The translations under genes and the position numbers were made by a program. Positions 4,032 to 34,302 of a DNA stretch of 64,000 nucleotides are shown one piece after another (the stretch's first letter is position 1; each line of letters starts with the position of its first letter). The stretch comes from Vulcanimicrobiota bacterium (GTDB lineage Bacteria; Vulcanimicrobiota; Xenobia; Xenobiales; QWHO01): assembly GCA_039809865.1 (NCBI GenBank), contig JBDHVW010000023.1:14947-78946 (forward strand), read 5' to 3'. Below the pieces are notes generated by a model that saw only the letters and a list, made by a program, of their open reading frames with translations, did no database searches and had not been told where the DNA came from.

Positions 4032-5972
4032 TCAGAGACTCCAACTGGCGCTGAGCATTCCGCCGGGAACCAGGTCGAGAGGGCGCAGGTTCGTTCCGGC
4101 CGCGTCGCACACGTGGAGCTGGCCATTGTGGTCGAGCACGATCTGCGTGCCATCCGGGCTCCAGGTCGGCTGGCCGATGTCGTCGCCAAAGGAAACCGGC
4201 AGGTTGGTGGCCGGACCCAGCAACCCCGGGCTGTAAGCCGCCGTGGCGATGGTTACGCCGGTGGCGTTCAGAAACAACACCCGGTCGCCAGCCGAGTTCA
4301 GGCGCGGGGCGTCGGCCTCGATTCCGAACGACTGGACCGCGCTCGTGTCCACATTGGTCTCGGTCAACTCCCAGCGGAAGGTCACGCCTCCCGTATCCAC
4401 GGGATGGGAGGCGAGAAAGCGCCGGTCGGAGCTGCTGGGCACCCAGTTGGCCTGCATGCTGCGGGACGGATTCAACCCATCCACCACCGGGTCGGGGCAA
4501 TAGTTGGAGTAGGACAGGAGGCCCACCTGAACGGGCGCCGCCCCGGTGAGGCGCGTCACCCAGTACTCGAGCTGGCGCGGCGTCTGGTTGAAGGTCGTGT
4601 AAACGACCTGCGTGCCGTCGGGCGTCCAGGAGGCTCCCACGATGGGCCCGGTGGCCACCGTCATGGGATGGCGGCCGTCGGCGTCCACGACGATCACGTC
4701 GGTTCCGCCCGGGCGAACGCTCAGAAAGGCCAGTTTGCTACCGTCCGGTGAAAATTCCGGATTGCACACCGAGGTGTAGCGACGCCGCGTGAGGCTGGTC
4801 CGATCGCTGCCGTCGGCATTGATCAGCTCGATCTCGGTGCCGTTGGCCCCCTGGAACGCGATGCGGCCGCGCGGAACCACGAGCACGCGCCCCCCCGCGC
4901 CGATGGTGGCCGGAACCGAGCCGCCGCGCTCGTCCACCACCCGGCAGGTGAGCGTGAAGATCTTTCCCTCGGATCCGGGTGGAGGAACCCATTCCCAGCG
5001 GCTGAGCCAGTTCCCGGCGGACTCGTCCCACACCATCCGCTGCGAGCCGGGATGCGAATAGGCGCCACCTGGCTCCCCGGGCGGGCCCTGAACGCTCCAG
5101 AGGCAGGCCAGGCGGTCTCCGTCCCTGTCGCTGGCGCGCACCACCAGGCTGAGGTGGCCGCCCGCCCCGACCGTGGCATCCACGCCTCCCGGCAGTCCAC
5201 TGACGATTGGCCTGGGCTCCACCTTCACGGGGCCGACCAGGGTCGGGTTCGCGTTGGCTCCCGCCAGGCTCAGCGAGGGGGGCGCCCCGGGCGGCGTGAC
5301 GAGAGGACGGGTCACGAGCTCCACCGGGCCTTGCGGGAGCAAACCGGAGCCCGTGCTGACCTTTCCCTCGGGAGACACGCTCAGCGTGACCGGGGCCTGC
5401 ACGCGCGTCAAGAGATGGGAGGGACGCCCCAGCGCGCTGCCCGCGCCAGCCTCGAGGGACGCACAGACCACCAGTCGAAAGGCCCCATCTACCAGCGGCT
5501 GCGTGGACAGGGCCGAGCCGTTGGGCAAGAAGACGATGACCGCGTCGCTCGCCTGGGGGCGGTTCCAGGCGGTCACGTCCAGCCCGGAGCCGGCGCAGTC
5601 GCGCTGGGTGTCCAGCCACTCCTCGGTGGTCCCGCCCGGCCAGTAACCCGCGAACAGGTAAGCGTTCGGGAACTCGCTGGCGAAGCTCCAGCGCTCCACG
5701 AAACGAGCCTGACCAAAACCACGGACCTTGTAGCAGCCCGTCGCGTGCCCCAGGGCTCCATTCTGGCTGGGGAAGGCGATCCCCACGGGCTCGCCCAGCC
5801 GCATCGCTTGCTCGCGGGCGGCGCTGAGGCGCCCCGCCAGGGCTTCGGACAGACCTTGCGTGTCGGCCTGGGAGCGCTGGTGTTGCGACGCCTGCAGCCC
5901 GAGGACTACCAGCGCGGCCAGGATGGCCACCACCAGCATGGTCTCGAGCAGCGAGGCTCCGCGACGTCTCAC
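4032..5972 (-). CDS. Prepilin-type N-terminal domain protein fused to TolB/WD40-like beta-propeller repeats (PilY1-like tip-adhesin candidate)
   Basis: N-terminus MRRRGASLLETMLVVAILAALVVLGL matches the class III (type IV pilin) leader/cleavage motif G|ASLLE with a hydrophobic helix. Repeated SPDGSKLAF, WTPDGTQVVY and WSPDGTQIVL units are typical of TolB-like propellers. ATGA-type coupling with the upstream gene (5969..5972). Confidence 0.7.
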   Translation of the reverse strand: MRRRGASLLETMLVVAILAALVVLGLQASQHQRSQADTQGLSEALAGRLSAAREQAMRLGEPVGIAFPSQNGALGHATGCYKVRGFGQARFVERWSFASEFPNAYLFAGYWPGGTTEEWLDTQRDCAGSGLDVTAWNRPQASDAVIVFLPNGSALSTQPLVDGAFRLVVCASLEAGAGSALGRPSHLLTRVQAPVTLSVSPEGKVSTGSGLLPQGPVELVTRPLVTPPGAPPSLSLAGANANPTLVGPVKVEPRPIVSGLPGGVDATVGAGGHLSLVVRASDRDGDRLACLWSVQGPPGEPGGAYSHPGSQRMVWDESAGNWLSRWEWVPPPGSEGKIFTLTCRVVDERGGSVPATIGAGGRVLVVPRGRIAFQGANGTEIELINADGSDRTSLTRRRYTSVCNPEFSPDGSKLAFLSVRPGGTDVIVVDADGRHPMTVATGPIVGASWTPDGTQVVYTTFNQTPRQLEYWVTRLTGAAPVQVGLLSYSNYCPDPVVDGLNPSRSMQANWVPSSSDRRFLASHPVDTGGVTFRWELTETNVDTSAVQSFGIEADAPRLNSAGDRVLFLNATGVTIATAAYSPGLLGPATNLPVSFGDDIGQPTWSPDGTQIVLDHNGQLHVCDAAGTNLRPLDLVPGGMLSASWSL

Positions 5973-6433
5973 CAGGTGCCCCCATCCTGGAAATGCACGA
6001 GTTGGAAGAGCGTGGGGCGCGCCGGGGAGAGGTCGAGGTCGGCGCTCAGTTGCACGCGCGCGGTGGGCTGATCGAGCGAGCCCAGCAGGCCCACCGAGGT
6101 GATTCGCATGAGGTCGTGGCTGTCACGCCAGCTCGCATCGAGCTGCACCTGGTAGAAGCCGAGCGGGCTGCCGTCCAACTCGGGGAGCTCCTCGCTGTAG
6201 CAGAACCGGGGCTGTCCGGCGGCCAGGGTAGGCGGGAAATCGGGATCGAGCGCGAGCTTGAGCCGTGCGTCCTCGAGGCCCGCCCAGGCCAGGGCTCGGG
6301 CCCGCTCGCCGGCCGTCAGGTCGGAGGCTCCGCGATAGCACTCCTTGCTCTGCTCGAACAGCCCCATCGCCAGCGAGAAGATGCAGACCGACATCAACAA
6401 AGTCACGATCAGCGCCGAGCCGCGTCGCGTCAC
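5969..6433 (-). CDS. Pilin-like protein with GspK/PilX-type N-terminus (no Glu at +5)
   Basis: GTG start at 6433 overlaps the TGA of the upstream gene (GTGA). N-terminus VTRRGSALIVTLLMSVCIFSLAMG gives a short basic leader, Gly, then a hydrophobic helix. Sits in an operon between two other pilin-like genes. Confidence 0.5.
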   Translation of the reverse strand: MTRRGSALIVTLLMSVCIFSLAMGLFEQSKECYRGASDLTAGERARALAWAGLEDARLKLALDPDFPPTLAAGQPRFCYSEELPELDGSPLGFYQVQLDASWRDSHDLMRITSVGLLGSLDQPTARVQLSADLDLSPARPTLFQLVHFQDGGTW

Positions 6434-6960
6434 GGGCGGGCCACCTCGGCCTGCAGCGTGACCACGCCGGCCCCTTCCTGCACCGAAAGGCGCACTTGCA
6501 TGAGGCCCGGCTCCAGCCAGGCGGCCGAGAGCCCGACCGACTCGGCCACCACCGAGCGACGCCCCTCGATCTCGCGCACCAGGTTGCGGTCCGGATCCAC
6601 GTAGAATCGCACGTTGTCCAGCGCCACGGCCGAAGGGTCGAAGCCCGTCCCGGAGGCCGGCAACCATTCCTGATTGGGCCGAGGGCGCAGCAGCTCGATC
6701 CGGCTGGCCGGAGCGCCCGTGGGCTCGAGGATCTGGTGAGCCTCCTGCAGCTCGAGACACAGCTGCGAGAGAGCGCGAGTCGATTCCAGGCGGCGATCCT
6801 GGCGCGAGTTGAACCGGAGAAACTCGGAGTAGCTCGCCAGCAGATTGGCGAGCAGGGCCATGACCAGCCCGAACAGCAGCATCGTAACGAGCGCCTCGGG
6901 GATCGTGAAGGCTCTACGGCCCAAGATCCACCACCGTCGTGCCAGAGAAGGTCCGGCCAA
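6430..6960 (-). CDS. Type IV pilin-like minor pseudopilin (GspI/J- or PilV/W-like)
   Basis: N-terminus ...RRAFTIPEALVTMLLFGLVMALLANLL is a prepilin-type N-terminal methylation-like segment. Overlaps both neighbours. Confidence 0.65.
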   Translation of the reverse strand: MAGPSLARRWWILGRRAFTIPEALVTMLLFGLVMALLANLLASYSEFLRFNSRQDRRLESTRALSQLCLELQEAHQILEPTGAPASRIELLRPRPNQEWLPASGTGFDPSAVALDNVRFYVDPDRNLVREIEGRRSVVAESVGLSAAWLEPGLMQVRLSVQEGAGVVTLQAEVARP

Positions 6961-7699
6961 AGTAGCTGGTGCTGGCCATCAGGCGTACCTGCCCGGGCCA
7001 CACCTGCCAGCCACCGGTGCGCAGCACCTTGAGCGCATTCTTGACGCGGACCTGGCGCCCGTCGCGGCTGATAGGCGGCAACAGGGTCGCGTTGCCGGTC
7101 ATGGGCACGACCGACCAGAAGAACATCGCGTCCACGGGCGCGCCGCCGGGCAGCAGCGCCGTGGCCCGGTAGTCGGCTTCCTGCTGTCCGCTCAGGGGGT
7201 TGGGCCCGCTCACCCGGTCGAGTCGGATGGTGAGGTCGTCGGCCGGGTCCAGACGGTTGGGCTCACTGATGAGCGTGGTCAGGCGCACCCGGTCGCGCGG
7301 ACCGTTCGCGCTCCAGGCCACTTCGACGGCGACCGGAAAGGCGGAGGCGGGGAAGCGCCGGGGATCCCCGGACGGGACTTCCAGGGAGGAAGCCGGGGAG
7401 AGAAGCTCGCGGGCGGGGCCGCGCTCGGTGAGGACGGTGAATCCAGGATGGTCAGGCCGTGTTTTGGAGCCTATCTTCGTCGACCAATCCGAGCTAAAAT
7501 TCGTGGAATTACGTGCCCAGAGCCGTAATTGGTCGAGCTCGGACCGCGCCAGTAAAGTCGCCTCCATCTGCCTTTGGGACCATCGGCGATAACCCAGAGC
7601 ACGATGGAAAGTGCCGACGAACATCAGCACAACGGCGGTCAAAAGGAAGATGGCCAGCACAACTTCAGAAAGCGACATCCCCCGCCATCGCCGCAGCAT
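6914..7699 (-). CDS. Type IV pilin-like minor pseudopilin (GspH/J-like)
   Basis: MLRRWRGMSLSEVVLAIFLLTAVVLMFVG matches G|MSLSEV (Gly, hydrophobic, Glu at +5). First gene of the minus-strand pilin operon. AT-rich putative promoter region 7700..7760 lies upstream. Confidence 0.65.
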   Translation of the reverse strand: MLRRWRGMSLSEVVLAIFLLTAVVLMFVGTFHRALGYRRWSQRQMEATLLARSELDQLRLWARNSTNFSSDWSTKIGSKTRPDHPGFTVLTERGPARELLSPASSLEVPSGDPRRFPASAFPVAVEVAWSANGPRDRVRLTTLISEPNRLDPADDLTIRLDRVSGPNPLSGQQEADYRATALLPGGAPVDAMFFWSVVPMTGNATLLPPISRDGRQVRVKNALKVLRTGGWQVWPGQVRLMASTSYFGRTFSGTTVVDLGP

Positions 7700-8012
7700 T
7701 GCTTCAGGTTAGCAGGCGGAATACCGAAAATCAAGCTGTTTATGGCATTGAATATCTCGCTTGGCCCCTGGTGGTAATCGACCCGGAAACCCCACCGGGT
7801 ACAGTCAGAATCGAGGCGCCGACTCACGCATAGCTCGTCCTGGCGGTTTTCCGAAATCCCGATTGAGGGCAGCTCAAGCAAGAAATCACACAATTCGAAC
7901 AGGGTTTCGAAATTGCTCGAGAAAGGCTTTTCCACGGCCCTCGGTGGACATGAAGGCCCCCGAAAGGGAGCGGACGAAGGAACTTCCACTTTCTCCCGGA
8001 GGACTACGTCTC

Positions 8013-21193: not shown

Positions 21194-22282
21194 ATGAGCA
21201 CCGTTATCGCATATAATTCCGCACTTACCAATATGGCGCCGCCACGCGCGCGCCTGGTCTCGGCCCAGCAGACCGCCGCGACGCCCGTCACCGACGACGT
21301 CCAGCTGAGCGGAGGCAAGGCCGCCGAAGAGAAGCCGGAGGACAAGCCCGGCGTCTCCCTGGGCACGCAGATCGCCGCCGGCGTAGGCCTGGCGCTGGTC
21401 CTCACCGGCGCCGTGGCGGGCTTTACCGGCTCGATTCCGGCGATGGGCGCGCCCACCGCGATCACGCAGGTCCAGACTCGCGACGTGAAGGCCGTCGGCG
21501 ATGACGCCGCTGCCCTCATGAAAGACGTCGCCTCGCCCAGCCTGACCGACAACCTGACCGCCAACCAGGTGCGCAACCGCTACGGCAACGAGGTGGACGA
21601 CGTGCTGGGCCAGGCCAAGACGTTCGACCAGCTCAACGCCCATCTAGGGGAGGTCGGCCAGAAGCTGCAGGCCTACGCCGACAAGTTTCCTGAAGGTGGC
21701 TCGCTGGTCGAGAACGGCGCCCAGATCGGCATCGAGAAGGCGGACGGCAAGGTGACCGTCACCGTCCAGAACGCCGACGCCAGCGTGCAAGAGGCGGTGA
21801 TCAGCCGTCACGGCATCACCGTGAAGGAGCGCGACGCTCAGGGCACCACCACGACGCGGGAGGAGACAGCGCGCCAGGTCAAGGTCAACGCGGACGGCGT
21901 CACGATGACAGTCAACAAGATGACCGGGACCTTTGAGATGGCGACCCAGGAGGGCCCTCGCACTCAGATCAAGGTGACCGTCAGCGGCGCCTCGATCACC
22001 GAGCAGCGGCGAGAGACCATCTCGGGCTACGCCGGGATGATCTCGATCAATACGACCACCAAATACGACGTTCCGGAGACCTCCGTCATGGTCTACCCGC
22101 GCGTAGTGGTGACCGAGACCAAGACCACCGTCAGCGACGATGGTTTTGGCGCCAAGTCCACCACCAGCACCCGCACCGAGGTCTACGACAACGGCAGCAG
22201 CAAGACGTTCCAGAAAGGTCCCGACGGCAAGGAGATGATTCTCGAGTCGGACGGGCCCGCCATTCTGATCGCGGGACGCTGA
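21194..22282 (+). CDS. Hypothetical Thr-rich protein with one TM segment
   Basis: Non-biased composition. First gene of a co-oriented, tightly packed block ending at 28098. Confidence 0.5.
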   Translation: MSTVIAYNSALTNMAPPRARLVSAQQTAATPVTDDVQLSGGKAAEEKPEDKPGVSLGTQIAAGVGLALVLTGAVAGFTGSIPAMGAPTAITQVQTRDVKAVGDDAAALMKDVASPSLTDNLTANQVRNRYGNEVDDVLGQAKTFDQLNAHLGEVGQKLQAYADKFPEGGSLVENGAQIGIEKADGKVTVTVQNADASVQEAVISRHGITVKERDAQGTTTTREETARQVKVNADGVTMTVNKMTGTFEMATQEGPRTQIKVTVSGASITEQRRETISGYAGMISINTTTKYDVPETSVMVYPRVVVTETKTTVSDDGFGAKSTTSTRTEVYDNGSSKTFQKGPDGKEMILESDGPAILIAGR

Positions 22283-22295
22283 CAAACTCCAGGTT

Positions 22296-23699
22296 GTGAG
22301 GGTTTTTCAGCTCGACCTCCGCTCGTTGGCCATCCTCCGGATGGCCATCGGCTTTTTGGTGCTGTTGGATACCCTGCTGCGCGCGCGCGATCTCTCCGCG
22401 TTCTACACCGACGCCGGCGTCATCCCGCGCCTGGACCTGATCGAGTGGTCCTGGGGTGATCCGTGGCTTTGCCTGCACCTGGGAGGCTCCGGCTGGCTGT
22501 CGGCCGCCGTCCTGTTTGCTTTGACGGCGGCCGCGGCCGTGCAGCTGATGCGCGGCTGGCGCACGCGTTGGATGACGTTTGCCTGCTGGCTCTCTCTCAG
22601 CTCGCTCTACCAGCGCAATCCGCTGGTGAACGACCGCGGGGACCTGGAATTGATCCTCGTCCTCTTCTGGAGCCTGTTCCTGCCGCTGGGAGGTCGCTGG
22701 TCGGTCGACGCGCGCCGCGACGGAGCTCAGGAGGATCCGGTCGTGCTCAGCGCTGGCAGCGCGGCGATGCTCCTTCAGTTCGCGCAGATCTATGTGTTCG
22801 CGGCGCTGCTCAAGAACGGTCTTCCCTGGCTGCGAGGGGATGCCATGGAGCTCTCGCTGCGCAGCGCGCTCTTCTCGACTCCCCAGGGTTTATGGCTGAC
22901 CCGCTGGCCAGACCTGCTCAACACCCTGACGCACCCGGCCGTGGCCCTGGAGCTGCTCATCCCGTGCCTTTTGCTGTGCCCGCTGGCCAACGGTCAGGTC
23001 CGAAGCGTGGGGGTGTTGCTGCTTGTGGTGTTTCACACGCTGGTGGGGCTGTTCTTGCAACTGGGGATCTTTCCGCTCATCGGCGCGCTGTTACCACTGG
23101 GATTGCTGCCGGCCTGGTTCTGGGAGACCGTTGGCTGGCAGCGGCGGCTGGACCGCTGGTTCCCCGCCCCCGAGCGCCCCGGGCGGGCCGGGCGGCTTCC
23201 GGTTGCGGTCACGCTCTTCGTGCTGCTTTGCCTGGCTTACACCCTGGCCTGCAACCTCTTCATGGTGCGCGATCCCAACCCTCGTCTCATCCCCGACTGG
23301 CTGCGGCCCCTGGGCCGCAGCCTCCGGCTCGAGCAGCACTGGGATCTCTTCGCGCCGCTTCCCCCGCTGGACGGGTGGTTCGTGCTGCAGGCCGAGGTCG
23401 ACGGCCAGCCGGTCGACCTGTTGCGCGACGCCCCGGCCACCATGGATCGCCCGGCGGACCCCTCTGCCGTCTTTCCAGACCATCGCTGGCGGATGTTCAT
23501 GGTCTCGCTCCTTTTCGGAGGCGAGCATTTTCGGGGTAACTACGCGCTTTATCGGGCGCGCCTCTATCACCAGCGGCATCCCGAGGCTCATCTCGGTCGT
23601 CTGGAGCTGATTTTCGTGGTACAGTTAGTCGACGAGGACGGAATTCGTCTTGCTCCCCAGGTTCGTTCCCTGTGGAGCGGCGCATTTCCGACAAAATGA
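22296..23699 (+). CDS. HTTM-domain integral membrane protein (vitamin K-dependent gamma-carboxylase-like), paralog 1
   Basis: LDLRSLAILRMAIGFLVLLD...FYTDAGVIPR and ...NPLVNDRGDLELILVLFWSLFLPLGGRWSVDA match the HTTM pattern (D..SLA.fR..G, NH.YL...WSVDG of human VKGC). GTG start 14 nt after the previous stop. Confidence 0.75.
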   Translation: MRVFQLDLRSLAILRMAIGFLVLLDTLLRARDLSAFYTDAGVIPRLDLIEWSWGDPWLCLHLGGSGWLSAAVLFALTAAAAVQLMRGWRTRWMTFACWLSLSSLYQRNPLVNDRGDLELILVLFWSLFLPLGGRWSVDARRDGAQEDPVVLSAGSAAMLLQFAQIYVFAALLKNGLPWLRGDAMELSLRSALFSTPQGLWLTRWPDLLNTLTHPAVALELLIPCLLLCPLANGQVRSVGVLLLVVFHTLVGLFLQLGIFPLIGALLPLGLLPAWFWETVGWQRRLDRWFPAPERPGRAGRLPVAVTLFVLLCLAYTLACNLFMVRDPNPRLIPDWLRPLGRSLRLEQHWDLFAPLPPLDGWFVLQAEVDGQPVDLLRDAPATMDRPADPSAVFPDHRWRMFMVSLLFGGEHFRGNYALYRARLYHQRHPEAHLGRLELIFVVQLVDEDGIRLAPQVRSLWSGAFPTK

Positions 23700-23796
23700 A
23701 CTGATTGGCACAAAGTGTCCGGAAGGACATTACAGGCCGTCGCGAAATTTTAACAAATTCGACGTGGGATCTCCGAGTTCGGAGGAGGGGCCAGTG

Positions 23797-25590
23797 ATGA
23801 GCATAAGTTTGCAGTTCTGGCGCACGAAACGCGGTTTCGGGCTGGTGGTCGTGCTGGGCATCGCAGCCGTGCTGGCCATCTTCACCGGTGCTATCGGTGC
23901 CAACGCCGCCATGAACCTCCGCAGCGTCACGCACGAGAGCCAGACGGACCAGGCCCACTACGCGGCTTTCACGGGCATCCAGCTCTCGATGGCCTGTATC
24001 AAGGAGCCTCCGCCCGGACGTGAGGATTGGCTCGAAGTCGACCCCAGCATCGTCGTCCAACTGAGTGAGAACACCAGCTGCACCGCCCGCACCTATCACA
24101 ACCTCGAAGGCCTGGCGGGAGCGGTAGCGGTGGCCGACGATGGGACCAAAATCCCGGTCAACAACTTCTACATCGTGGCCGTTGGCACGGTGGCTCAGGC
24201 TGTCAGCGCCAGCAGCTCCTCGATGGGCGCCCTGGTGGCCCCCCTGTTCCCGCCCATCGACCACGCCGTCTTCGGTAATTCCGAGGTCCACGTGGCCGGG
24301 CTGGTCGACCACTTCAACTCCAACGACATGGGTACTGCTCCCGACCCGGACTGCACCGTGGCCCTGGCCCCGGTGGGAACCAACTCGATCAACCTCAGCG
24401 ATTTCGATCTCGGCCCGACCACGCACGTGGATGGGGACCTGCACCTGGGTGAAGGGGCGTCGGCCGCCGACGTCAGCGCTCTGGCCGGCGTCGCCGCCTC
24501 CGACATGGCGGGCGGCGGCGGCTCAACCACCACGGGTGGAATGACGAGCACGACGACCACCACGACGGGAACGACCACCGGGGCAACCACGGGAACCACG
24601 ACCGGAGCCACCACGGGCGCCGCAGCGTCCTCGGTCGACACCGGCACGATCTCGACGGGCACCGCCAGCAGCCTCCCGGCCCAGAAGCAGATGCCCAACC
24701 TCGCGGCGCCGACCGCCGCCAGCACCATCGTTCCCAGCACGGGCGGATTCAGCCTCAACGGCAGCCGCAGCTACGTCATCAACGGCAACCTGGTCCTGAA
24801 CAACGCAACCATCACGGTGAACGGCACCGGCAACGCGCTGCTGTTCGTCAACGGCAACATCAGCATCACCGACAGCCCCAACCTGACGGTTCCGATGCGC
24901 CCCGAGCGCCTCAAGATTTACTGCCTCGATCCCAACGGCACGTTCACCATGGTGAACAGCAAGGGCTACTTCGTGGTGGCCGGCAACGGGAACTTCAACG
25001 TCAACGTGGGTACCGATGCCGAGCTGTTCGGCGCCATCCTGGCCGATAAGGTCACTGTGAATGCGGGCAGCGCCGTGCACTTCGACGTGGCGCTGGCCGA
25101 CCCGACTCGCGTGGGCTCGGTCAGCGATTTCTTCATCACGGGTATCACCGCCGCCGGTGGTGAGGCCGTGCCGCACGCCGCCCTGATCGCTCCGGGAGCG
25201 CTGGCCGGAGGGGCTGGAACGGCCGCGGCCGCGACCGGAACGACCGGGACGACCGGGACGACCGGAACGACCACCGGGGCGGCCACGACCGGAACCGCCA
25301 CGACCGGAACCGCCACGACCGGAACCGCCACGACGGGAACGACGACCGGGGGCACCGGAATGACCGCCGGCGGGACCACCGGAATGACCTCTACCGCCGG
25401 GACCACCGGAACCACCGGGACCGCGACCACGGGAACGACCACAGGAACGGCCACCACCGGAACCGCGACGACCGGAACCGCCACCACCGGAACCGCCACC
25501 ACCGGCACGGCCACCACCGGAACCACCAGCACTTGCGGCTGCGGCTGCGGCTGTGGCGGCGGGAGCATGGCGATGGACATGGCCCTCTAG
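23797..25590 (+). CDS. Large pilin-like (GspK/PilX-type leader) secreted protein with Thr/Gly-rich repeats and C-terminal (Cys-Gly)4 tail
   Basis: ATG 23797 with GGAGGAGGGG 6 nt upstream. N-terminus MSISLQFWRTKRG|FGLVVVLGIAAVLAIF has a basic leader ending in Gly plus a hydrophobic helix and no Glu+5, as in GspK. Long TTTGATTG / TGTATTG runs. Ends ...TTSTCGCGCGCGGGSMAMDMAL. Confidence 0.6.
   Translation: MSISLQFWRTKRGFGLVVVLGIAAVLAIFTGAIGANAAMNLRSVTHESQTDQAHYAAFTGIQLSMACIKEPPPGREDWLEVDPSIVVQLSENTSCTARTYHNLEGLAGAVAVADDGTKIPVNNFYIVAVGTVAQAVSASSSSMGALVAPLFPPIDHAVFGNSEVHVAGLVDHFNSNDMGTAPDPDCTVALAPVGTNSINLSDFDLGPTTHVDGDLHLGEGASAADVSALAGVAASDMAGGGGSTTTGGMTSTTTTTTGTTTGATTGTTTGATTGAAASSVDTGTISTGTASSLPAQKQMPNLAAPTAASTIVPSTGGFSLNGSRSYVINGNLVLNNATITVNGTGNALLFVNGNISITDSPNLTVPMRPERLKIYCLDPNGTFTMVNSKGYFVVAGNGNFNVNVGTDAELFGAILADKVTVNAGSAVHFDVALADPTRVGSVSDFFITGITAAGGEAVPHAALIAPGALAGGAGTAAAATGTTGTTGTTGTTTGAATTGTATTGTATTGTATTGTTTGGTGMTAGGTTGMTSTAGTTGTTGTATTGTTTGTATTGTATTGTATTGTATTGTATTGTTSTCGCGCGCGGGSMAMDMAL
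25201..25562. repeat. Intragenic microsatellite-like tandem repeats: degenerate 15-bp ACCGGAACCGCCACG units and (TGCGGC)4
   Basis: Direct reading of 25260..25560. Encodes (TGTAT)n and CGCGCGCG. Confidence 0.7.
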
Positions 25591-25600
25591 GAGCCTGGTG

Positions 25601-26053
25601 ATGCGGCGCCGCGGACATTCGCTCCTCGAAGCGGTCGTGGCGGCCTCGGTTTTCGCCATCGTAGCGGTGGCCCTCACGGGCATCTGGTTCATGTACTACT
25701 CCGCCCTGTCCAAGTCGGCCAATACCCTGGCTGCCAATCACCTGGCCCGTACCGTGGTGGAGGGAGCCATCGCCAACGGCTACGACTGGATCGTCACCCA
25801 GCAGCAGCAGACCGACCTGGTCTACACGCTGGAGCGGCGCGTCCGCAGCCGCAGGGCCAACAGTGAATATCACGTCGATTGGGTGGCTATCACCAATGCC
25901 GGCCAGTCGATCACCACCATGCTCCCGGCCGAGGTCTGCCGCATCTCGGTTACGGTGAAGTGGAAAGACGATACCGGCAACCAGATCGATGCCGGTCCCT
26001 ACAATCACCAGGTGGTTTACTCCACCTGGATCTACCGGAGCGCGTCGCAGTGA
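25601..26053 (+). CDS. Type IV pilin-like minor pseudopilin (GspH/I-like, 150 aa)
   Basis: MRRRGHSLLEAVVAASVFAIVAVAL matches G|HSLLE with Glu at +5. Starts 10 nt after the previous stop. Confidence 0.7.
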   Translation: MRRRGHSLLEAVVAASVFAIVAVALTGIWFMYYSALSKSANTLAANHLARTVVEGAIANGYDWIVTQQQQTDLVYTLERRVRSRRANSEYHVDWVAITNAGQSITTMLPAEVCRISVTVKWKDDTGNQIDAGPYNHQVVYSTWIYRSASQ

Positions 26054-26745
26054 GGAAGCGCAGCCTCGGTATGTCCCTGATGGAGATCCTGGTCGCCATC
26101 TTCGTGATGGGGATCGTCGTCTGGGGGGCCTACGAGATCTTCCGGGAAGGCATTCAATACTTCAAGACCAATCAGAGGGCCAGCGACGCCCAGCGACACT
26201 GCCTCAACCTGCTGAGCCAGGTCTGCCTGCAGGTCACCAATGCCAAAGAGGAGCTCGTCAAGAACTACGACGCTCCCGGCGTGGTCCCCGGAGTCTGCTT
26301 CGCCTCGCCCCTGGCCGACGACGGCAAGGTGCACTACGACCTGACCAACGGCAATCAGGTCTTCTGGCAGAAGATCGTCTGCTATTACCTGGATACGACT
26401 TCCGGTAAGGTCTACCGCAAAATCGAGAAGATTCCCGACACGGTGGCGGGCGAGACGGGCAACAGCGACATGGGTCAGGTGGAGGCGCTGCTCGCCACCT
26501 CCACCACGAACTACTTCCAATCGCTCAACACCAACGCGGTCACCCTGATCGCCGAGGACATCGTGGCCTTCAAAGTCAGCGCCTACGATCCCGCGACCAG
26601 CGGGGTCGTGCCGGGGGCCGGGCCCAGCGCCGGCGCGGGCGGTGGACGCGCGTTCGATATCGTGGTGGAAGCCGGGAACCCCACGGACATGGGGCCCAAC
26701 GGCTACTACCTCAAGCTCGATTCCCGCGTCGCTCCCCGAGGCTGA
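26050..26745 (+). CDS. Type IV pilin-like minor pseudopilin (GspJ/PilW-like, 231 aa)
   Basis: GTG 26050 overlaps the TGA 26051..26053. VRKRSLG|MSLMEILVAIFVMGIVV. Confidence 0.7.
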   Translation: MRKRSLGMSLMEILVAIFVMGIVVWGAYEIFREGIQYFKTNQRASDAQRHCLNLLSQVCLQVTNAKEELVKNYDAPGVVPGVCFASPLADDGKVHYDLTNGNQVFWQKIVCYYLDTTSGKVYRKIEKIPDTVAGETGNSDMGQVEALLATSTTNYFQSLNTNAVTLIAEDIVAFKVSAYDPATSGVVPGAGPSAGAGGGRAFDIVVEAGNPTDMGPNGYYLKLDSRVAPRG

Positions 26746-28098
26746 TTGGCCGTTGGCGAACGTCTAAAAGCTCCGTTTACCCTGGATCTGCGGTCCCTGG
26801 CGCTGCTGCGTATGGGTCTGGGTGGGCTGGTCGTGCTGGACGTGCTGCTGCGTCTGCGCGATCTGACGACCTTCTATACCGACGCGGGCGTGCTGCCCCG
26901 GGCCGTGCTGCTGCGCCAGACGTGGCTCAATCCGTCCTATGACCTGTTCCTGAGCACCGGAACCACCGAGGGGATGCTGCTCCTGTTCCTGCTCGTGGCC
27001 CTGGCGGGTGGCTGCCTCGCGGTGGGCTGGCACACCCGCTGGAGCGGCCTGGCGACCTGGTATCTGGTCAGCTGCGTGCAACTGCGCAACCCCATGGTGC
27101 TGGACGGGGGCGACGATCTTTTGCGCTTGATGCTCTTCTGGACCCCCTTTCTACCGCTGGCGGCCCGCTGGTCGCTGGACGCGCGGCGCCATCCCGAGTG
27201 GCAACGGTTGCCCGACGGCTACTTCAGCGTGGCCACGGTGGGTTACGTGTTGCAGGTTTGCTGCCTCTACGGCTTCGCCGGGCTGCTCAAGTCGGATCCG
27301 GTCTGGCGCGTCACGGGCGACGCCCTCTACTACGCGCTCAGTGTCGACCAGTTCGCCACCGGGCTGGGGATGAAGCTGACCGCCTATCCCGGCCTGCTGC
27401 GCCCATTGACCTTTGGGGCCCTGGCGATCGAGCTGACGGTGCCGGTCTTGCTGCTCCTGCCCTGGGGCACGCGCTGGCTCCGCTGGCTGGCGCTCATCCT
27501 GGCCTGGTCGCTGCACCTTGGGATCGCGGCCACGATGCACCTGGGCCTCTTCATGCCGATCTGCTGCGTCTGCCTGCTCGGGTTGCTGCCCCTGCGCGGC
27601 CAGCCCGGCTCGACCGAGCCGGTTCCCCCGGCCTACCGGCTCGGCTGGGCCACGCAGACTCTGCTCGGGATGATGTGCGTCTTCATTCTGGGAATGAACG
27701 TGCGCAGCCTCGACCCGCATCCGCCGCGCATGAATCGCATTCTGGTCTGGGTGGCGGCGCTTTCTCACGAGGGCCAGGGATGGTATCTCTTTGCCCCTCA
27801 CCCGCTCACCGACGACGGCTGGTTCTGGGTGCACGGTCGCGGCGCCGACGGCCGCGAGGTGGACGTGCTGGGGGGAGCCGACAAGCCGGCCATGGTGTCG
27901 GCCCAGTTTGCCAACCAGCGCTGGCGGCGCTGGCTGCAGAATCTCAAAGAGGGCTACCCGGACCTGCGGGCCAGCTATCTGCGGCAAGTGGCGCGGACGC
28001 GCGGGTTGAGCCACGTGACGCTGACCTACATGGAGGAGCAGACCCCTCCACCCGGGGGGCAGGCCACGGTCGTGCTAAAAGTTCTTGATCAGCTCTAG
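26746..28098 (+). CDS. HTTM-domain integral membrane protein, paralog 2
   Basis: TTG start immediately after the pilin stop. About 50% identical to paralog 1 over the N-terminal 150 aa (LDLRSLALLRMGLGGLVVLD...FYTDAGVLPR...RNPMVLDGGDDLLRLMLFWTPFLPLAARWSLDA). Confidence 0.75.
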   Translation: MAVGERLKAPFTLDLRSLALLRMGLGGLVVLDVLLRLRDLTTFYTDAGVLPRAVLLRQTWLNPSYDLFLSTGTTEGMLLLFLLVALAGGCLAVGWHTRWSGLATWYLVSCVQLRNPMVLDGGDDLLRLMLFWTPFLPLAARWSLDARRHPEWQRLPDGYFSVATVGYVLQVCCLYGFAGLLKSDPVWRVTGDALYYALSVDQFATGLGMKLTAYPGLLRPLTFGALAIELTVPVLLLLPWGTRWLRWLALILAWSLHLGIAATMHLGLFMPICCVCLLGLLPLRGQPGSTEPVPPAYRLGWATQTLLGMMCVFILGMNVRSLDPHPPRMNRILVWVAALSHEGQGWYLFAPHPLTDDGWFWVHGRGADGREVDVLGGADKPAMVSAQFANQRWRRWLQNLKEGYPDLRASYLRQVARTRGLSHVTLTYMEEQTPPPGGQATVVLKVLDQL

Positions 28099-29283
28099 CG
28101 TGGGCAAGATGGCGCTGAGCACGATGAAACCCACCACCAGCCCCATCCCGGCCATCAGCAGGGGTTCGAGCATGGCCGCCAGGTCGGAGAGCGCCAGCTC
28201 GACCTCCTCGTCGTAGATGCGCGCCGCGTAGCGCACCATCTCGGTCAGGCCGCCGGTCTCCTCGCCCACGCTCACCAGGTAGATGGCGGCTCGCGGCAAG
28301 ATGGGCACGCTCTCGAGCGACTGCCCCAGGTCGAGGCCGTCGATCATCTGCTTGCGGGCCACCATCATGCATTCCTTCACCCAGGCGTTGCCCGAGACGT
28401 TGGCGGCGCGCGCCATCGCGTCCACCATCGGCATGCCCGCGTCGAGCATGGTGGCCAGCGAGTAGAGGATGCGCGTGGTGGCCATCTTCTGCATGACCGG
28501 CCCGAAGATGGGGATCTCCATCGGCAGTCGAGTCAGCGCGCTGTCGAGCCGGGGGTTGTTCTTCAGCCAGCGCCGCAGCCAGGGCTTCCCCAGCCACAGA
28601 CCCACGAGGCCGAGACCGCACAGGATCACGCCCGGGAGCATCCAGGTGCGCAAGGACAACAGCATTCGGGTGGGCCACGGGAGAGTCACCTTGAGACTCG
28701 TGAAGAGCGGCTGGATCATCGGCAACAGGAAGAAGACGAAGAAGAAGACGCTGGCCATCGACACCAGGAACAAGATGGCCGGGTAGGTGAACGTGGCCAC
28801 CAGCTTCTTCTGCAGCTTGAGATTCTTCTCGAGCAGGTCGGCCAGCCGGTTGAGCAGCTCCTGGAGCTGGCCCGATTTCTCGCCGGTCTCCACCAGCGAG
28901 CAGTAGACCTCGGAGAAGACCTGGGGATGGTTGCGCAGGGCCCGCGAGAACATCACCCCGCCGTGGACCCGCGCGGTGACGTCTTCGAGGATCTTGCGCA
29001 GCCCCCGGTCTTCCAGGCTCTCGGTGAAAAAGTTCAAGGCCCGATACAGGGGGATCCCGGCGTCGAGCATGGCGGCGAGCTGACGGGTGAAGGTGGAAAG
29101 CTCTTCCAGATTGGCTCTCGGGGCGCCTCGGCCGGGGATGAGCCCGCGAAGTTGCTGTTTCAGTTCTTCGGTCGGTGAGCTCACCTCTTGAATTTCGGCC
29201 CGTCGCGCCACTTTCCCTTGAAGGAAACCTTGGCTGCTTCGGCCGGTTGGATGCTTCATTCCACCGAAAGAGGTAGCCATCAT
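28075..29283 (-). CDS. Type II secretion / type IV pilus platform protein GspF/PilC family
   Basis: Two T2SSF-like repeats (LSTFTRQLAAMLDAGIPLYRAL...; LYSLATMLDAGMPMVDAM...) and 3 TM segments. Start ambiguous (ATG 29283, 29280 or 29259). Convergent 24-nt overlap with HTTM paralog 2. Confidence 0.8.
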   Translation of the reverse strand: MMATSFGGMKHPTGRSSQGFLQGKVARRAEIQEVSSPTEELKQQLRGLIPGRGAPRANLEELSTFTRQLAAMLDAGIPLYRALNFFTESLEDRGLRKILEDVTARVHGGVMFSRALRNHPQVFSEVYCSLVETGEKSGQLQELLNRLADLLEKNLKLQKKLVATFTYPAILFLVSMASVFFFVFFLLPMIQPLFTSLKVTLPWPTRMLLSLRTWMLPGVILCGLGLVGLWLGKPWLRRWLKNNPRLDSALTRLPMEIPIFGPVMQKMATTRILYSLATMLDAGMPMVDAMARAANVSGNAWVKECMMVARKQMIDGLDLGQSLESVPILPRAAIYLVSVGEETGGLTEMVRYAARIYDEEVELALSDLAAMLEPLLMAGMGLVVGFIVLSAILPTLELIKNF

Positions 29284-29581
29284 GTTGAAAACAGCTCTGA
29301 TCTTCGGCGTCGTCCTGTGCACCCTGGTCGTGGGCCCGGCCCAGGCCGAGGGGGTGAACCAGCGAGAACGCCACCAGGGAAGCCGGATCTACGGGGGCAT
29401 CCAGAATGGAGAGCTTTCCCAGGGAGAAGCGCGCCGCGTCTCCCGCGACCTGGCCCACGTGCAGCGCGTCGAGGATCGCTTCCGCCGGTCGGGCTCCGGC
29501 TACAGCGTTCGTGAGCGCTGCGCCACCCAGGCCATGCTGAACCGCAGCAGCAACCGGATCTATCGTCTCAAGCACAACTAG
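29282..29581 (+). CDS. Small secreted protein (99 aa)
   Basis: AAGAGG RBS 9 nt upstream, signal peptide MLKTALIFGVVLCTLVVGPAQA. Confidence 0.5.
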   Translation: MLKTALIFGVVLCTLVVGPAQAEGVNQRERHQGSRIYGGIQNGELSQGEARRVSRDLAHVQRVEDRFRRSGSGYSVRERCATQAMLNRSSNRIYRLKHN

Positions 29582-31256: not shown

Positions 31257-31588
31257 GGACCTTATTGTTGTGCTTGTTACTGACCGGGCTGGTGTGGGCC
31301 CAGGACCTGTCGCGCCCGGAGGGCCGCTGGGAGGTCGCCCACACCGACGGCAAGACCTTCCACATCGATGTTCAGATCGACCACACATGCACCAGCGACT
31401 ACGGCGGCGGCGAGGTGGGCAGCTGGCGCTACGAGCCCGGCGTGGGCCTGACCCTGGACTGGACCGACGGCTGGCGCGACCGCATCTTCACAACGCCCGA
31501 GGGCGAGCTGGTCAAATGGGGCTGGAAGCCCGGCGCCGACCGCAACGGCGAGCCCAGTAACCGGACGAGGGCCCGCAAGCTACGCTGA
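31238..31588 (+). CDS. Small secreted protein (116 aa)
   Basis: MEGKRLRTLLLCLLLTGLVWAQD signal peptide. Overlaps the plsC-like 3' end by 19 nt. Confidence 0.5.
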   Translation: MEGKRLRTLLLCLLLTGLVWAQDLSRPEGRWEVAHTDGKTFHIDVQIDHTCTSDYGGGEVGSWRYEPGVGLTLDWTDGWRDRIFTTPEGELVKWGWKPGADRNGEPSNRTRARKLR

Positions 31589-32602
31589 CTTGCCCTCGCG
31601 TCTGGCCAGGTCTTCCGCTTTCTTCTTGAGGGCGTCCTCGCGGTAACGCAGCATCTCCTCGCGGACGTGCCGCTCGCGGTCCATCCTGGTCACGGCGCCG
31701 GCCTGCTCTTTCTCGGACAGGGCGACCTCTTGCTCGCGCGCGTCCAGAGCCTTGTCGCGCTTGTCCATGTCCAGCCATTCCTGGCCCTGGTGGCCGCGAT
31801 ACCTGGCCTCGGAGACGCCTTTGCGGATCAGGTCCACGATGGTCATCCCGCCGACGAAGCAGATGGCGCCCAGCACCACCCCGCCCACCAGCGCGCCGGC
31901 GGCGGCGCCGCCCACCAGGGTGGGGAAGTTGAGGTTGGCCGCGATCAGGCCCTGGGCCAGACCCGCGCCCGTCATGATGCCCGCGCCCATGGCCGCGCCC
32001 CCGGCCACGCCACTCAGGGTGGCCATGCCGCCGATCACCATGCCCACGTTGCGCATCGGGCCGCTGCCCAGGGAAACATAGGGACGCTGCTCGTCCGGAT
32101 CCGGGGGCGCCGGTGGAGGCGTCGCGGCCGGGGCCCCCGCGCCGTTCTTCTCCAGCCAGTGAGCGCTGGCGCCCTTCAGCGCACCGACGGCCGCACCCGG
32201 CACGAAGGCCGGCTTGCCCGCGATCTCGCCCAGAGAGTTGCCGATGCGCCAGCCACCGGCGGCGCCGCAGACGCCGCCGAGCACCATGCCGGCCGCGCCG
32301 AAAGCGTTGATCGTATGGAGCCCGGTCGTCAGGAAGCTCCAGCCGCCGTGGCTCATGGCCGCGGCCACCGGTCCGGCGAAGCCGCCGCCCAGAATGCCGC
32401 CCGCCAGGGCTCCTCCGATGACGCCGCCGTAGAGTCCCAGCATCATCAGCGAGAATCCGCCGGCTCCCGCGGAAATGTTGGAGCTCTCTTCCATCCACTC
32501 GCGCCCGGTCTCGAGAGCGGCTTCTTTGACGTCCTGGCCCAGCGTGCGCTCGGCCCGGGGTGGGGTCTGCACCGGAGCGGTGCGGACGGCTTGCACGTTC
32601 AC
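31580..32602 (-). CDS. Glycine-zipper membrane protein with C-terminal Lys/Glu coiled-coil, paralog B
   Basis: Two GxxxG-rich hydrophobic blocks (HGGWSFLTTGL...), acidic linker, and C-terminal RDKALDAREQEVALSEKEQ coiled-coil. ATGA overlap with paralog A. Confidence 0.5.
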   Translation of the reverse strand: MNVQAVRTAPVQTPPRAERTLGQDVKEAALETGREWMEESSNISAGAGGFSLMMLGLYGGVIGGALAGGILGGGFAGPVAAAMSHGGWSFLTTGLHTINAFGAAGMVLGGVCGAAGGWRIGNSLGEIAGKPAFVPGAAVGALKGASAHWLEKNGAGAPAATPPPAPPDPDEQRPYVSLGSGPMRNVGMVIGGMATLSGVAGGAAMGAGIMTGAGLAQGLIAANLNFPTLVGGAAAGALVGGVVLGAICFVGGMTIVDLIRKGVSEARYRGHQGQEWLDMDKRDKALDAREQEVALSEKEQAGAVTRMDRERHVREEMLRYREDALKKKAEDLARREGKSA

Positions 32603-33660
32603 CGCGCACCTCCCAGCTTCTGCTCGCGCTCGGCCAGCTGTTTGGCCAGCGCGTCGAGCTCCGCCTGGCGCTTGTCCAGGGCCTGGTTCTTGAGCTTGTC
32701 GTCCTCGGCCGCTTTGCCGGCGTCGACCTTGACCTTGTCAGCGCGATCCTGCAGCGCTTTCTCGCGCTCGTTCTGTTTGGCCTCGCGCTCGTTGAGCTGC
32801 TTGGCGGTGGTTTTGTGGCCGGAGGTGAGCTTGCCGCCGGTCTTGTCCCAGATCGTCTGCGCGGCCTGCACCAGCTGCAATCCACCGCGCCCGCCGATGT
32901 AGGCCAGCGCTACCGCGCCTACCAGGCCGCCCACCAGAGCCGTGGCGGGCAGGGCTGACACGAAGCCGCCCCAGGTCAGCGAGCTGGACAGCGCCGTGTG
33001 GGCCAGGCTGCCGGCGGCGGCCAGCGTGGCGCCACCCACGAATCCGCCCACGCCGCCCGAGACCGCGGCAGCCCCGGCCACCATACGGGCGGCCGGCTCG
33101 AACTTGCCGTGGAACGTCGGACCGGATTTCTTGACCGCGGGTTTCTCGTCCTCGGGCTCGGCGCCCGGGACCTCGATCCCCGCCAGTCCTTTGGCTCCGC
33201 CCACCACGAAGCCGGCTCCGAAGCCGACCCCTTTGGCCAGCTTGCCGCCGACTTTCGTGCCCAGACTGAAAGCTCCCAGCGTACCGGTGGCGCCGCCCAG
33301 GATCATTCCCACTTTGGCAGCCGTGCCGGCCGTCGTCAGAGTGGTGGTCACGAATCCCCAGGCGCCGTGGCTGGCCAGCGAGGCGACCACGGGGCCGAGT
33401 CCGGCGCCCAGCATCGTGCCCACCACCGCGCCCCCGAAAACCATCCCGTAGGTGGCCACGGCGGTGAGCGCGATGCCGGTCATGCCCCCGATGCCGAGCT
33501 CGAGCTTGTCGCCCCAGTCGGCGCCCTGGCGGACACCCGATTGCACGGCCAGTTGCGTGCGGGTTGGCGGCGTCGTTTGAGCGCGCGGAGCTTGGAAAGC
33601 GGTGGTGGTGGCTAGCGATACTTGCACGGGCTGCAGGATATGCATGCGCCCTGAAAACAC
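32599..33660 (-). CDS. Glycine-zipper membrane protein with C-terminal Lys/Glu coiled-coil, paralog A
   Basis: Same architecture (HGAWGFVTTTL..., KQLNEREAKQNEREKALQDRADK...). The antisense ORF 31667..32902 is rejected. Confidence 0.5.
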   Translation of the reverse strand: MFSGRMHILQPVQVSLATTTAFQAPRAQTTPPTRTQLAVQSGVRQGADWGDKLELGIGGMTGIALTAVATYGMVFGGAVVGTMLGAGLGPVVASLASHGAWGFVTTTLTTAGTAAKVGMILGGATGTLGAFSLGTKVGGKLAKGVGFGAGFVVGGAKGLAGIEVPGAEPEDEKPAVKKSGPTFHGKFEPAARMVAGAAAVSGGVGGFVGGATLAAAGSLAHTALSSSLTWGGFVSALPATALVGGLVGAVALAYIGGRGGLQLVQAAQTIWDKTGGKLTSGHKTTAKQLNEREAKQNEREKALQDRADKVKVDAGKAAEDDKLKNQALDKRQAELDALAKQLAEREQKLGGAR

Positions 33661-33694
33661 CCTTAAAAACCCCTGAAAAATTAATCCCGGTTTG
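33661..33694. promoter_or_regulatory. AT-rich island (CCTTAAAAACCCCTGAAAAATTAATCCCGG) between the PilZ gene and glycine-zipper paralog A; candidate internal promoter
   Basis: Strikingly AT-rich for a 70% GC window. AAATTAAT resembles a -10 element. Confidence 0.3.
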
Positions 33695-34302
33695 TTAACG
33701 GATCCCCAGGTCGAGATACCGGTTCAGCAGCGCCGTCTGCTCCGGGCTCAGGGGGAGGAAGGCCAGTCCAAAGCAGCCATCGGTCTGGTGAGCGATGCGG
33801 GCCCGGGTCTCGAGCGGCTCGACGCCCTCGGTCGGGCCGATGCGCAGAGTGACCTCGGACCCCTGCTCCAGGGCCTCGTCCAGCGTGACCAGCACGCCCC
33901 CCGGGCCGAGGTTCTCGACGTTGCCGGCCAGCTTGCCGTTGACCTGGATCGGCAGCAGGATAGGCGCGCGCACGTCGTTGCGCCGCTCGTCCCTGGAGCT
34001 GTCGAGCTGTTTCAGGGCCGACTCCACCCAGGTGCCCTCGGGCGAGCCGCAGTAGCTGCAGCCGACCTCGATGATGCTGGTGAAGCTCTTGGGCTGGCAC
34101 CACCGCACCTCGAGCTCGAGGCCTTTCCCCTCGCGGTCCTGGCGGGCGAAGACGGTCAAACGGGTCCCGGATTCGAGCTTCTGGGGGACGGCCAGACGCA
34201 TTCCCTCGGCGCCCAGATCGATGACGGTGGCGTTGAACTCGGTATCGTCTACTTCGCAGAGAATGGAGTAGCGGCTACCGAAGCGGCGGGTCTGGCGTTT
34301 CT
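33695..34302 (-). CDS. Tandem PilZ-domain protein (c-di-GMP receptor candidate)
   Basis: Two PilZ signatures: QKRQTRRFGSRYS...DLGAEGMRL and RRNDVRAPILLP...NLGPGGVLV (RxxxR ... D/NxSxxG). Putative GTG start 34302 overlaps the hyuB 3' end by 28 nt. Confidence 0.6.

Follow-up and report, generated by a model that had tools for sequence, protein, structure and literature searches.

A conserved cassette of GGCX-like HTTM proteins and type IV pseudopilins in Vulcanimicrobiota, with a Gly/Cys-rich pseudopilin tail as candidate substrate

A 64-kb stretch of a Vulcanimicrobiota genome (contig JBDHVW010000023.1; hereafter, the window) carries six genes of one orientation and a seventh that converges on them at positions 21194 to 29322, a region in which proteins of the HTTM family, resembling the vitamin K carboxylase GGCX, are encoded beside type IV pilin-like proteins. 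The six genes encode, in order, a hypothetical protein (G1), HTTM1, a large pseudopilin that we call BIG, two smaller pseudopilins (pilA and pilB), and HTTM2, and the convergent gene encodes a GspF/PilC-type platform protein. The best explanation for the observations described below is that, in Vulcanimicrobiota (class Xenobia and its relatives), this module serves a type IV filament system as a conserved accessory specific to that lineage. The HTTM enzymes and the pseudopilins are probably direct functional partners, and the C-terminal tail of BIG, which carries a near-invariant Gly/Cys-rich motif, is a candidate substrate of the HTTM enzymes. The region was first singled out in a reading of the sequence alone (the original prediction), which proposed either HTTM-dependent modification of a pilin-like tip complex or insertion of a mobile pseudopilin cassette between tandem HTTM paralogs.

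Related neighborhoods were gathered by exact-protein look-ups and pattern scans, and the window proteins were mapped onto them by BLAST. A scan with a 9-sequence HTTM alignment used restrictive patterns and returned 8 loci; a metagenome scan with a BIG profile was saturated by a promiscuous hydrophobic pattern and contributed 4 confirmed loci. In 18 distinct loci (the window, L001, L003, L005, L006, L011 to L018, L021, and L023 to L026), one or more HTTM genes lie 3 kb or less from BIG, pilA, and pilB, so that the adjacency recurs beyond this genome. The HTTM proteins of these loci are 36 to 74% identical to those of the window, and the loci have GC contents of 54 to 68%.

Gene order varies considerably among the loci. 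The order HTTM1-BIG-pilA-pilB-HTTM2 is shared by the window, L001, L003, L012, L014, L015, L018, and L024, while BIG-pilA-pilB-HTTM2-HTTM3-HTTM1, which includes a third HTTM paralog, is seen in L005, L006, and L016. HTTM2 is divergent from HTTM1-BIG-pilA in L013 and L017, HTTM1-HTTM2 is followed by CPBP-pilB-pilA-BIG on the opposite strand in L011, and a single HTTM gene stands before or after the pilin trio in L023, L025, and L026. The flanking genes represent at least 6 unrelated contexts. In the reverse direction, all BIG homologs recovered by profile search or metagenome scan adjoin an HTTM gene. Because the linkage outlasts repeated rearrangement, a functional partnership is favored over insertion of a mobile cassette; the number of loci, their permuted orders, and their varied flanks strongly support the proposal that the HTTM-pilin association is functional rather than accidental.

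The linkage does not extend to distant HTTM proteins (33 to 37% identity), as no pilins were found near those in a Gemmataceae metagenome-assembled genome (MAG), a haloarchaeal-type contig (L009), and a cytochrome P450/short-chain dehydrogenase cluster. Named HTTM1 homologs come from MAGs of Vulcanimicrobiota (formerly Eremiobacterota), the closest being a Candidatus Xenobia MAG (66% identity); Xenobia is a class of this phylum. The named records thus point to Vulcanimicrobiota/Ca. Xenobia and not to Myxococcota, the lineage initially suggested. Two cassette contigs (L011 and L017) are labeled Selenomonadaceae and Burkholderiales yet are syntenic with Vulcanimicrobiota MAGs, and their labels likely reflect mis-binning or mislabeling.

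HTTM proteins, the large pseudopilin, and its tail

HTTM1 and HTTM2 are 37% identical. The AlphaFold 2 (AF2) model of HTTM1, a polytopic membrane protein, has a predicted local distance difference test score (pLDDT) of 89.7 and a predicted template modeling score (pTM) of 0.91. Searching the PDB with this model returns cryo-EM structures of human GGCX alone (E value of 1e-7), aligned over ~470 to 490 columns, which is approximately the whole protein; 15 of the 15 matches with E values of ≤1e-3 are GGCX, with a probability of 1.0 and TMq of ~0.5 to 0.55. The HTTM family profile aligns to residues 166 to 320 of GGCX (9bum), and in this profile alignment HTTM1 residues K173, W178, H247, and F259 pair with K218, W223, H287, and F299 of GGCX. 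In GGCX, vitamin K hydroquinone is deprotonated by Lys218, the catalytic base, and Trp223, His287, and Phe299 contribute to the active pocket (10.1101/2025.02.09.637231; PMC12647623).

The four corresponding HTTM1 positions show little or no variation among 20 aligned homologs. HTTM homologs form three paralog classes, each with its own signature motifs, including NDRGDLEL, LEQHWDLF, and HRWRM in the HTTM1 class and LDGGDdlLR, QxWxLFAP, and QRWRRW in the HTTM2 class; 253 homologs of HTTM2 were found at E <1e-10. All three classes retain the Lys, which in HTTM2 again aligns to GGCX K218, as well as the His at position 247, and nearly all members retain F259. W178 is conserved in the 20-sequence HTTM1-centered alignment, HTTM2 included. 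The modeled fold and the conserved residues suggest that the HTTM proteins are working enzymes, the activity itself being predicted. DsbB/VKOR-like disulfide formation was considered as the main model and rejected because the HTTM alignments contain no invariant Cys.

The SdpB-family model TIGR04033 scores 24.6 and 28.6 bits on the two window HTTM proteins versus a cut-off of 178.4. SdpB had been taken for the only characterized bacterial HTTM protein, but MloH, of malonomycin biosynthesis, is another. Separately, one Gemmataceae MAG (L008) encodes an HTTM homolog (35% identity) directly 3' of futalosine-pathway menaquinone genes (VitK2_biosynth and the radical SAM family CofH_C). This homolog has Arg at the catalytic Lys position, and its gene context is a hint that fits a quinone cofactor for this HTTM clade.

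BIG has a prepilin-type N terminus (KRG/FGLVV) followed by a helix, with no Glu at position 5 of the mature sequence (Glu+5). Its AF2 model consists of a helix (residues 12 to 44), an alpha/beta domain, a beta-solenoid (residues 290 to 453; the DUF7305 region, pLDDT of ~90), and two disordered stretches. Residues 467 to 597 are disordered in the model and include a long Thr/Gly-rich linker encoded by tandem repeats. The best PDB match is ComZ (6qvi; E value of 3.6e-6), with a global TM-score that is low (0.2) owing to the disordered regions, and the next-best matches are DUF3494 ice-binding solenoids. The GspK model NF037980 scores 23.2 bits on BIG versus a cut-off of 130 and covers only residues 12 to 71, and no GspK structure is among the 50 fold matches listed for BIG. 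The original label "GspK-like" therefore holds for the N-terminal helix only; for the fold, ComZ is closest, and on the strength of the model the best reading of BIG is a large ComZ-like tip subunit.

With the BIG profile, a word-indexed search returned 10 close matches, and HMMER run in full against 1.84 billion representatives returned 33 relatives below 1e-30. The C termini of these HMMER relatives fall into three tail flavors. In the type 1 orthologs examined, a low-complexity linker leads into a near-invariant G-(CG)n-GGSM motif and then 5 to 15 residues; these are mostly non-hydrophobic, with neither a transmembrane helix nor a basic cluster. A few type 1 tails are Cys-less. Among the cassettes examined, those with type 1 tails have two or three HTTM genes. 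Type 2 tails, (CG)n-C-L-L-x4-C-L, occur in L025 and L026, and the type 3 tail, CCLDYSCGPPxCM[IL][YW], occurs in L023, in each case with a single HTTM2-like gene beside the trio. In the cassettes examined, tail flavor thus tracks the number of neighboring HTTM genes. A second BIG paralog is present 5 kb upstream in L026.

In the window, the type 1 tail reads CGCGCGCGGGSMAMDMAL, and G581 to M591 are invariant except for position 588 among 10 aligned type 1 homologs. The composition of the preceding linker drifts freely among orthologs, from Thr/Gly to Pro/Ala to Ser/Gly. The motif occurs once per locus, at the BIG C terminus only, in the loci scanned (the window, L001 to L006, L010 to L013, and L015 to L017); the BIG tail of L014 is a one-Cys form overlooked by the motif pattern. 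No tail of this kind is seen in more remote DUF7305 pilins. Isolated tails searched against NCBIfam matched no known sorting domain and gave one spurious low-complexity match only.

Five loci have, within the cassette, a gene for a CPBP intramembrane protease (CAAX-protease-like, Rce1-like; PF02517, E value of ~1e-20). The encoded proteins show sub-threshold likeness to myxosortase-type proteases, scoring below all myxosortase cut-offs. Haft tied myxosortase-type proteases to Cys-containing C-terminal sorting signals and type II secretion (10.1101/2023.06.07.544157; PMC11980579).

Gene layout and other features of the window

Genes were called by third-codon-position GC content (GC3; the window has ~65% GC) and cross-checked with open reading frame (ORF) lists and Pfam/NCBIfam profile scans (Table 1). 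These confirm the original description of six co-oriented, tightly coupled genes and a convergent GspF/PilC gene, with PF05090 matching HTTM1 and HTTM2, N_methyl matching pilA and pilB, and T2SSF matching the platform gene. pilA and pilB overlap by 4 nucleotides (nt), pilB abuts HTTM2, and the remaining gaps are 10 to 97 nt; the platform gene and the 3' end of HTTM2 share 24 nt. The deposited models of HTTM1 (P0001, 452 amino acids [aa]) and HTTM2 (P0065, 428 aa) begin 3' of an N-terminal LDLRSLA motif common to the orthologs, and by comparison with these the real starts are probably GTG at 22296 and TTG at 26746. G1 has orthologs in L003, L015, and L018, the closest relatives, but in neither L001 nor any more distant cassette, and it is probably outside the core module.

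In ortholog alignments, the pilA N terminus G/H-x-L-L-E is invariant, and pilB keeps G/MSLME and a conserved C-terminal SRV-PRG. No conserved Glu- or Asp-rich segment resembling those of γ-carboxyglutamate (Gla) proteins was found in the alignments of pilA, pilB, or BIG. The platform protein scores under every NCBIfam equivalog cut-off (GspF, PilC, and ComGB). Because its orthologs are 365 to 370 aa long, its start probably lies ~45 codons 3' of the longest-ORF start. A GspF gene accompanies the cassette in seven distinct loci (the window, L001, L003, L006, L015, L018, and L025). The platform gene had been described as an orphan, which holds insofar as no ATPase or secretin gene is nearby but not for GspF itself, given its linkage to the cassette. 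A motif search found no GspE Walker-A motif and no secretin motif anywhere in the 64 kb. No prepilin peptidase is present among the ORFs scanned within 10 kb, a result obtained with no dedicated Peptidase_A24 scan. The window contains no tRNA or Rfam matches.

The second minor-pilin set noted at ~4 kb in the original prediction is real, as judged by its translations and its GspH and PD40 matches. In its largest member, a GspH-like pilin domain is joined to a PD40/TolB-like beta-propeller. The set adjoins the HTTM cassette in L003 and T2SSF/GspF in L006, and it likely belongs to the same dispersed type IV filament system.

Three further features lie elsewhere in the window. A perfect 27-nt tandem repeat (2.9 copies) encodes RRQERSTKQ at the 5' end of an ORF for a DUF7544 membrane protein and overlaps the 5' end of a divergent hydantoinase A gene. 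Two paralogous Gly/Ala-rich membrane proteins with coiled-coil-like C-terminal tails match no Pfam family. A PilZ-domain gene is immediately upstream of this pair, and a PilZ gene is also found near the cassette in L024.

Table 1. Features of the window and of related loci. Coordinates are those of the window or of the named locus.
Feature	Location	Coordinates	Strand	Description
Second minor-pilin set	Window	4032..7708	-	N termini GASLLE (largest protein, with GspH and PD40), AFTIPE, GMSLSE
G1, hypothetical, 362 aa	Window	21194..22282	+	One predicted membrane segment, Thr-rich beta region; no Pfam/NCBIfam family match
HTTM1, 467 aa	Window	22296..23699	+	PF05090, 51.9 bits (cut-off 27.7), E 1.1e-13
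BIG, 597 aa	Window	23797..25590	+	PF23981 DUF7305, 41.4 bits, E 1.8e-10
Tandem repeats of BIG linker	Window	25232-25532		
BIG C-terminal tail motif	Window	25534..25587	+	CGCGCGCGGGSMAMDMAL; candidate recognition and modification site
pilA, 150 aa	Window	25601..26053	+	RRRG/HSLLE; N_methyl, 22.0 bits (cut-off 21.2)
pilB, 231 aa	Window	26050..26745	+	G/MSLME; N_methyl, 24.8 bits (cut-off 21.2); TIGR02532, 17.2 bits (cut-off 16.3)
HTTM2, 450 aa	Window	26746..28098	+	PF05090, 40.5 bits (cut-off 27.7), E 3.1e-10
GspF/PilC-type platform gene (T2SSF)	Window	28075..29322	-	PF00482, 192 bits, 2 domains, E 4e-57
Gly/Ala-rich membrane protein	Window	31580-33723	-	
Gly/Ala-rich membrane protein, paralog	Window	33695-34615	-	
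27-nt tandem repeat	Window	37754-37832		
CPBP gene	L005	8783-9928	-	
CPBP gene	L006	11422-12528	+	
CPBP gene	L011	13866-14933	-	
CPBP gene	L012	14394-15500	+	
CPBP gene	L016	9860-10957	+	
Single-HTTM cassette	L023	7420-11416		Large-pilin tail CCLDYSCGPPRCMIY
Single-HTTM cassette	L025	10001-14370		Large-pilin tail GGGCGCGGCLLSAVSCL
Single-HTTM cassette	L026	4791-14562		Large-pilin tail GGGCGCGCGGCLIAQQAL
HTTM homolog with menaquinone genes	L008	7849-11497		Gemmataceae MAG

Proposed mechanism and alternative explanations

BIG, which lacks Glu+5, and pilA and pilB, which both have it, most likely form a tip or initiation (priming) complex that the neighboring GspF-type platform would assemble. 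The HTTM enzymes would lie in the same membrane; homology with GGCX leads us to infer an active site on the periplasmic side that works with reduced menaquinone and O2. The HTTM enzymes would act on the co-encoded BIG tail, with the disordered linker (60 to 130 residues) delivering the Gly/Cys-rich segment into the enzyme and the short amphipathic tail end (SM-x-M-x-K or C-L-L-x...) serving as a recognition or docking element, like the propeptide of GGCX substrates. In some lineages, the cassette CPBP protease may later cut the tail back, as happens to CAAX and MYXO-CTERM proteins.

That the BIG tail is the HTTM substrate seems to us an even bet. The fuller proposal, a menaquinone/O2-dependent covalent modification of the Gly/Cys tail with CPBP-like trimming in some lineages, is more tentative. 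Analogy with the known enzymes suggests base-driven carboxylation, and carboxylation, lipid or quinone attachment, and other base-driven reactions are all possible; the products could be aminomalonate-type metal-binding residues, arising by C-alpha carboxylation, or lipid- or quinone-bearing residues. Glu+5 of the pilins was also considered as the HTTM target and rejected, since the GGCX active site is extracytoplasmic by homology and residue 5 of a prepilin presumably lies near the cytoplasmic face.

Several observations weigh against this mechanism. Close BIG relatives P0193, P0194, P0196, and P0199 keep the Gly run and GGSM without any Cys. Cys is therefore not a universal modification target, and given the conserved Gly run, a Gly- or backbone-directed reaction is as plausible as a Cys-directed one. 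The Glu-binding residues of GGCX (N159, H160, and Y395) have no aligned counterpart in HTTM1, HMMER leaving these and a further such residue, R436, outside the aligned region, so that the chemistry of the HTTM proteins is not readable from their sequence; an ungapped extension would put the invariant D113-R114-G115-D116 of HTTM1 opposite what we take to be N158-S161 of GGCX. HTTM1 also has only ~140 residues past its last membrane helix and lacks the large propeptide-binding lumenal domain of GGCX. With the Glu-binding residues not recovered and the extracytoplasmic domain much smaller, the substrate and reaction outcome may differ from those of GGCX. A tblastn search found no CPBP gene in the window cassette or the rest of the 64 kb. 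In L007, HTTM1 and HTTM2 form a pair, but no pilins are found where they would be expected. Lastly, all named loci belong to one phylum or its mislabeled bins, so the linkage may partly reflect shared ancestry, and all of the organisms are uncultured MAGs or metagenome contigs; the support is computational throughout.

The HTTM enzymes might instead act on a folded domain of BIG, pilA, or pilB, for example, carboxylating Glu or Asp to create metal-binding sites, or might modify filament cargo, with the tail serving some unrelated purpose at the tip (metal binding, adhesion, or disulfide capture). The known chemistry of the family, carboxylation of Glu by GGCX or of Asp by MloH, is consistent with this idea, as are the Cys-less tail variants, and the conserved linkage is silent on which protein is the target. 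However, the three pseudopilins contain no conserved Gla-like segment, the Glu-binding residues of GGCX were not recovered in the HTTM alignment, and the flavor of the tail tracks the number of HTTM neighbors. We regard this alternative as unlikely.

To the same low degree, the HTTM proteins may be membrane chaperones or assembly factors that fold, insert, or hand the tip complex to the platform rather than modifying it. The HTTM-superfamily proteins LMF1, a lipase maturation factor, and SdpB have maturation rather than clearly catalytic roles, and processing of SdpC requires SdpAB. Two or three paralogs per cassette could also build a hetero-oligomeric scaffold. Pseudoenzymes usually lose catalytic residues, however, whereas all HTTM paralog classes keep the catalytic-base Lys, and HTTM1 and HTTM2 keep the Trp, His, and Phe counterparts as well.

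Less probable again is that the neighborhood is merely a gene order inherited within one phylum, with no direct function joining HTTM proteins to pilins. All reliably named loci are from Vulcanimicrobiota, and the pair in L007 has no adjacent pilins, as this explanation would allow. Yet the cassette has been rearranged repeatedly (bracketing, trailing, divergent, and opposite-strand forms) and its flanks are wholly different, while the adjacency persists down to 36% identity and reciprocal BIG searches always return HTTM neighbors. Insertion of a mobile pseudopilin cassette between tandem HTTM paralogs, suggested by the bracketing of the pilins in the window and its close relatives and by the unbroken pair in L007, is very improbable and is contradicted by the permuted yet conserved arrangements: integrase, transposase, and tRNA genes and a GC shift were sought nearby and not found (with no terminal-repeat search run), the pilins elsewhere lie outside the HTTM genes or beside a single one, and HTTM1 and HTTM2, only 37% identical and each with orthologs in all lineages examined, form by sequence separate ancient orthologous groups that stay with the pilins in every arrangement.

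Relation to known systems

A partnership between HTTM enzymes and pseudopilins with the BIG tail as substrate would bear on both protein families. Bacterial homologs of HTTM/vitamin K carboxylases are widespread, and few have an assigned role (MloH and SdpB). To our knowledge, and in the literature searched, no ribosomal protein has been defined as the substrate of a bacterial HTTM protein in the way that Gla proteins are in animals. HTTM1/HTTM2 and the ~20-residue BIG tail constitute a candidate enzyme-substrate pair with a predicted recognition mode. If correct, the pair would give bacterial HTTM enzymes their first ribosomal protein substrate and would define a pilin modification of a new class and a new C-terminal maturation signal; type IV filaments would gain an unanticipated enzyme class among their accessories. 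Adhesion, metal binding, and anchoring at the filament tip are roles suggested by a tip subunit whose long flexible tether bears a reactive Gly/Cys motif at its end. The cassette would also extend an emerging theme in which CPBP proteases, along with machinery like that of type II secretion, act on Cys-containing C-terminal signals.

A full-text literature search found no mention of HTTM together with pilins, in agreement with the original statement that no such link had been described, and no mention of DUF7305; the phrase "HTTM domain" itself occurs in just three papers. The closest enzyme is GGCX, which shares the HTTM domain, is the only significant fold match over the whole length of HTTM1, and has its K218, W223, H287, and F299 counterparts kept. 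GGCX differs in having 758 aa, a large extracytoplasmic domain, and substrates recognized through an N-terminal propeptide, whereas HTTM1 has 467 aa and is proposed to recognize a C-terminal tail and use menaquinone. Among bacterial HTTM-family proteins, MloH (Streptomyces malonomycin) and SdpB (Bacillus) are encoded beside the molecule that they mature, as proposed here. MloH acts on a small-molecule polyketide synthase-nonribosomal peptide synthetase intermediate and involves no pilins. SdpB works with SdpA on the toxin precursor SdpC, beside which it is encoded, and this system, unlike the window cassette, likewise involves no pilins.

On the pilin side, BIG resembles ComZ of the ComZ-PilA2 tip complex of the competence pilus of Thermus thermophilus (PDB 6qvi; PMC6561018), a large minor pilin with a beta-solenoid in the pilin fold and small partner pilins encoded with it. 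Sequence identity between ComZ and BIG is ~12%. ComZ reportedly lacks the long disordered linker, the Gly/Cys C-terminal tail, and HTTM neighbors. Like the GspK-GspI-GspJ and PilX-PilV-PilW sets, the cassette has one large subunit without Glu+5 and two smaller ones with it, near a GspF/PilC platform; unlike them, the window cassette has no GspH-like fourth member and no nearby ATPase or secretin. TfpO/PilO, which glycosylates pilins, and PptA, which transfers phosphoforms, are polytopic membrane enzymes that are encoded beside the pilin and act in the periplasm. These are oligosaccharyl- and phosphoform-transferases acting on major pilins, whereas the enzyme here is of a GGCX-like class, with a tip pseudopilin as its proposed target.

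The tail recalls the MYXO-CTERM/myxosortase, JDVT-CTERM, and CAAX systems in its Cys motif after a low-complexity spacer, in the CPBP genes of five loci (none in the window, and all scoring below the myxosortase cut-offs), and in the tie to type II secretion or type IV filaments (10.1101/2023.06.07.544157; PMC11980579). The BIG tail differs in having no trailing transmembrane helix or Arg cluster, and its Cys is not at position -4, the CAAX position. HTTM enzymes are not known from any described sorting system, and the resemblance to MYXO-CTERM is one of function and not of membership. Each component of the cassette is of a known kind (a GGCX-like enzyme, a minor-pilin tip set, a platform protein, and a CPBP protease), and it is their conserved combination, together with the tail motif, that is previously undescribed.

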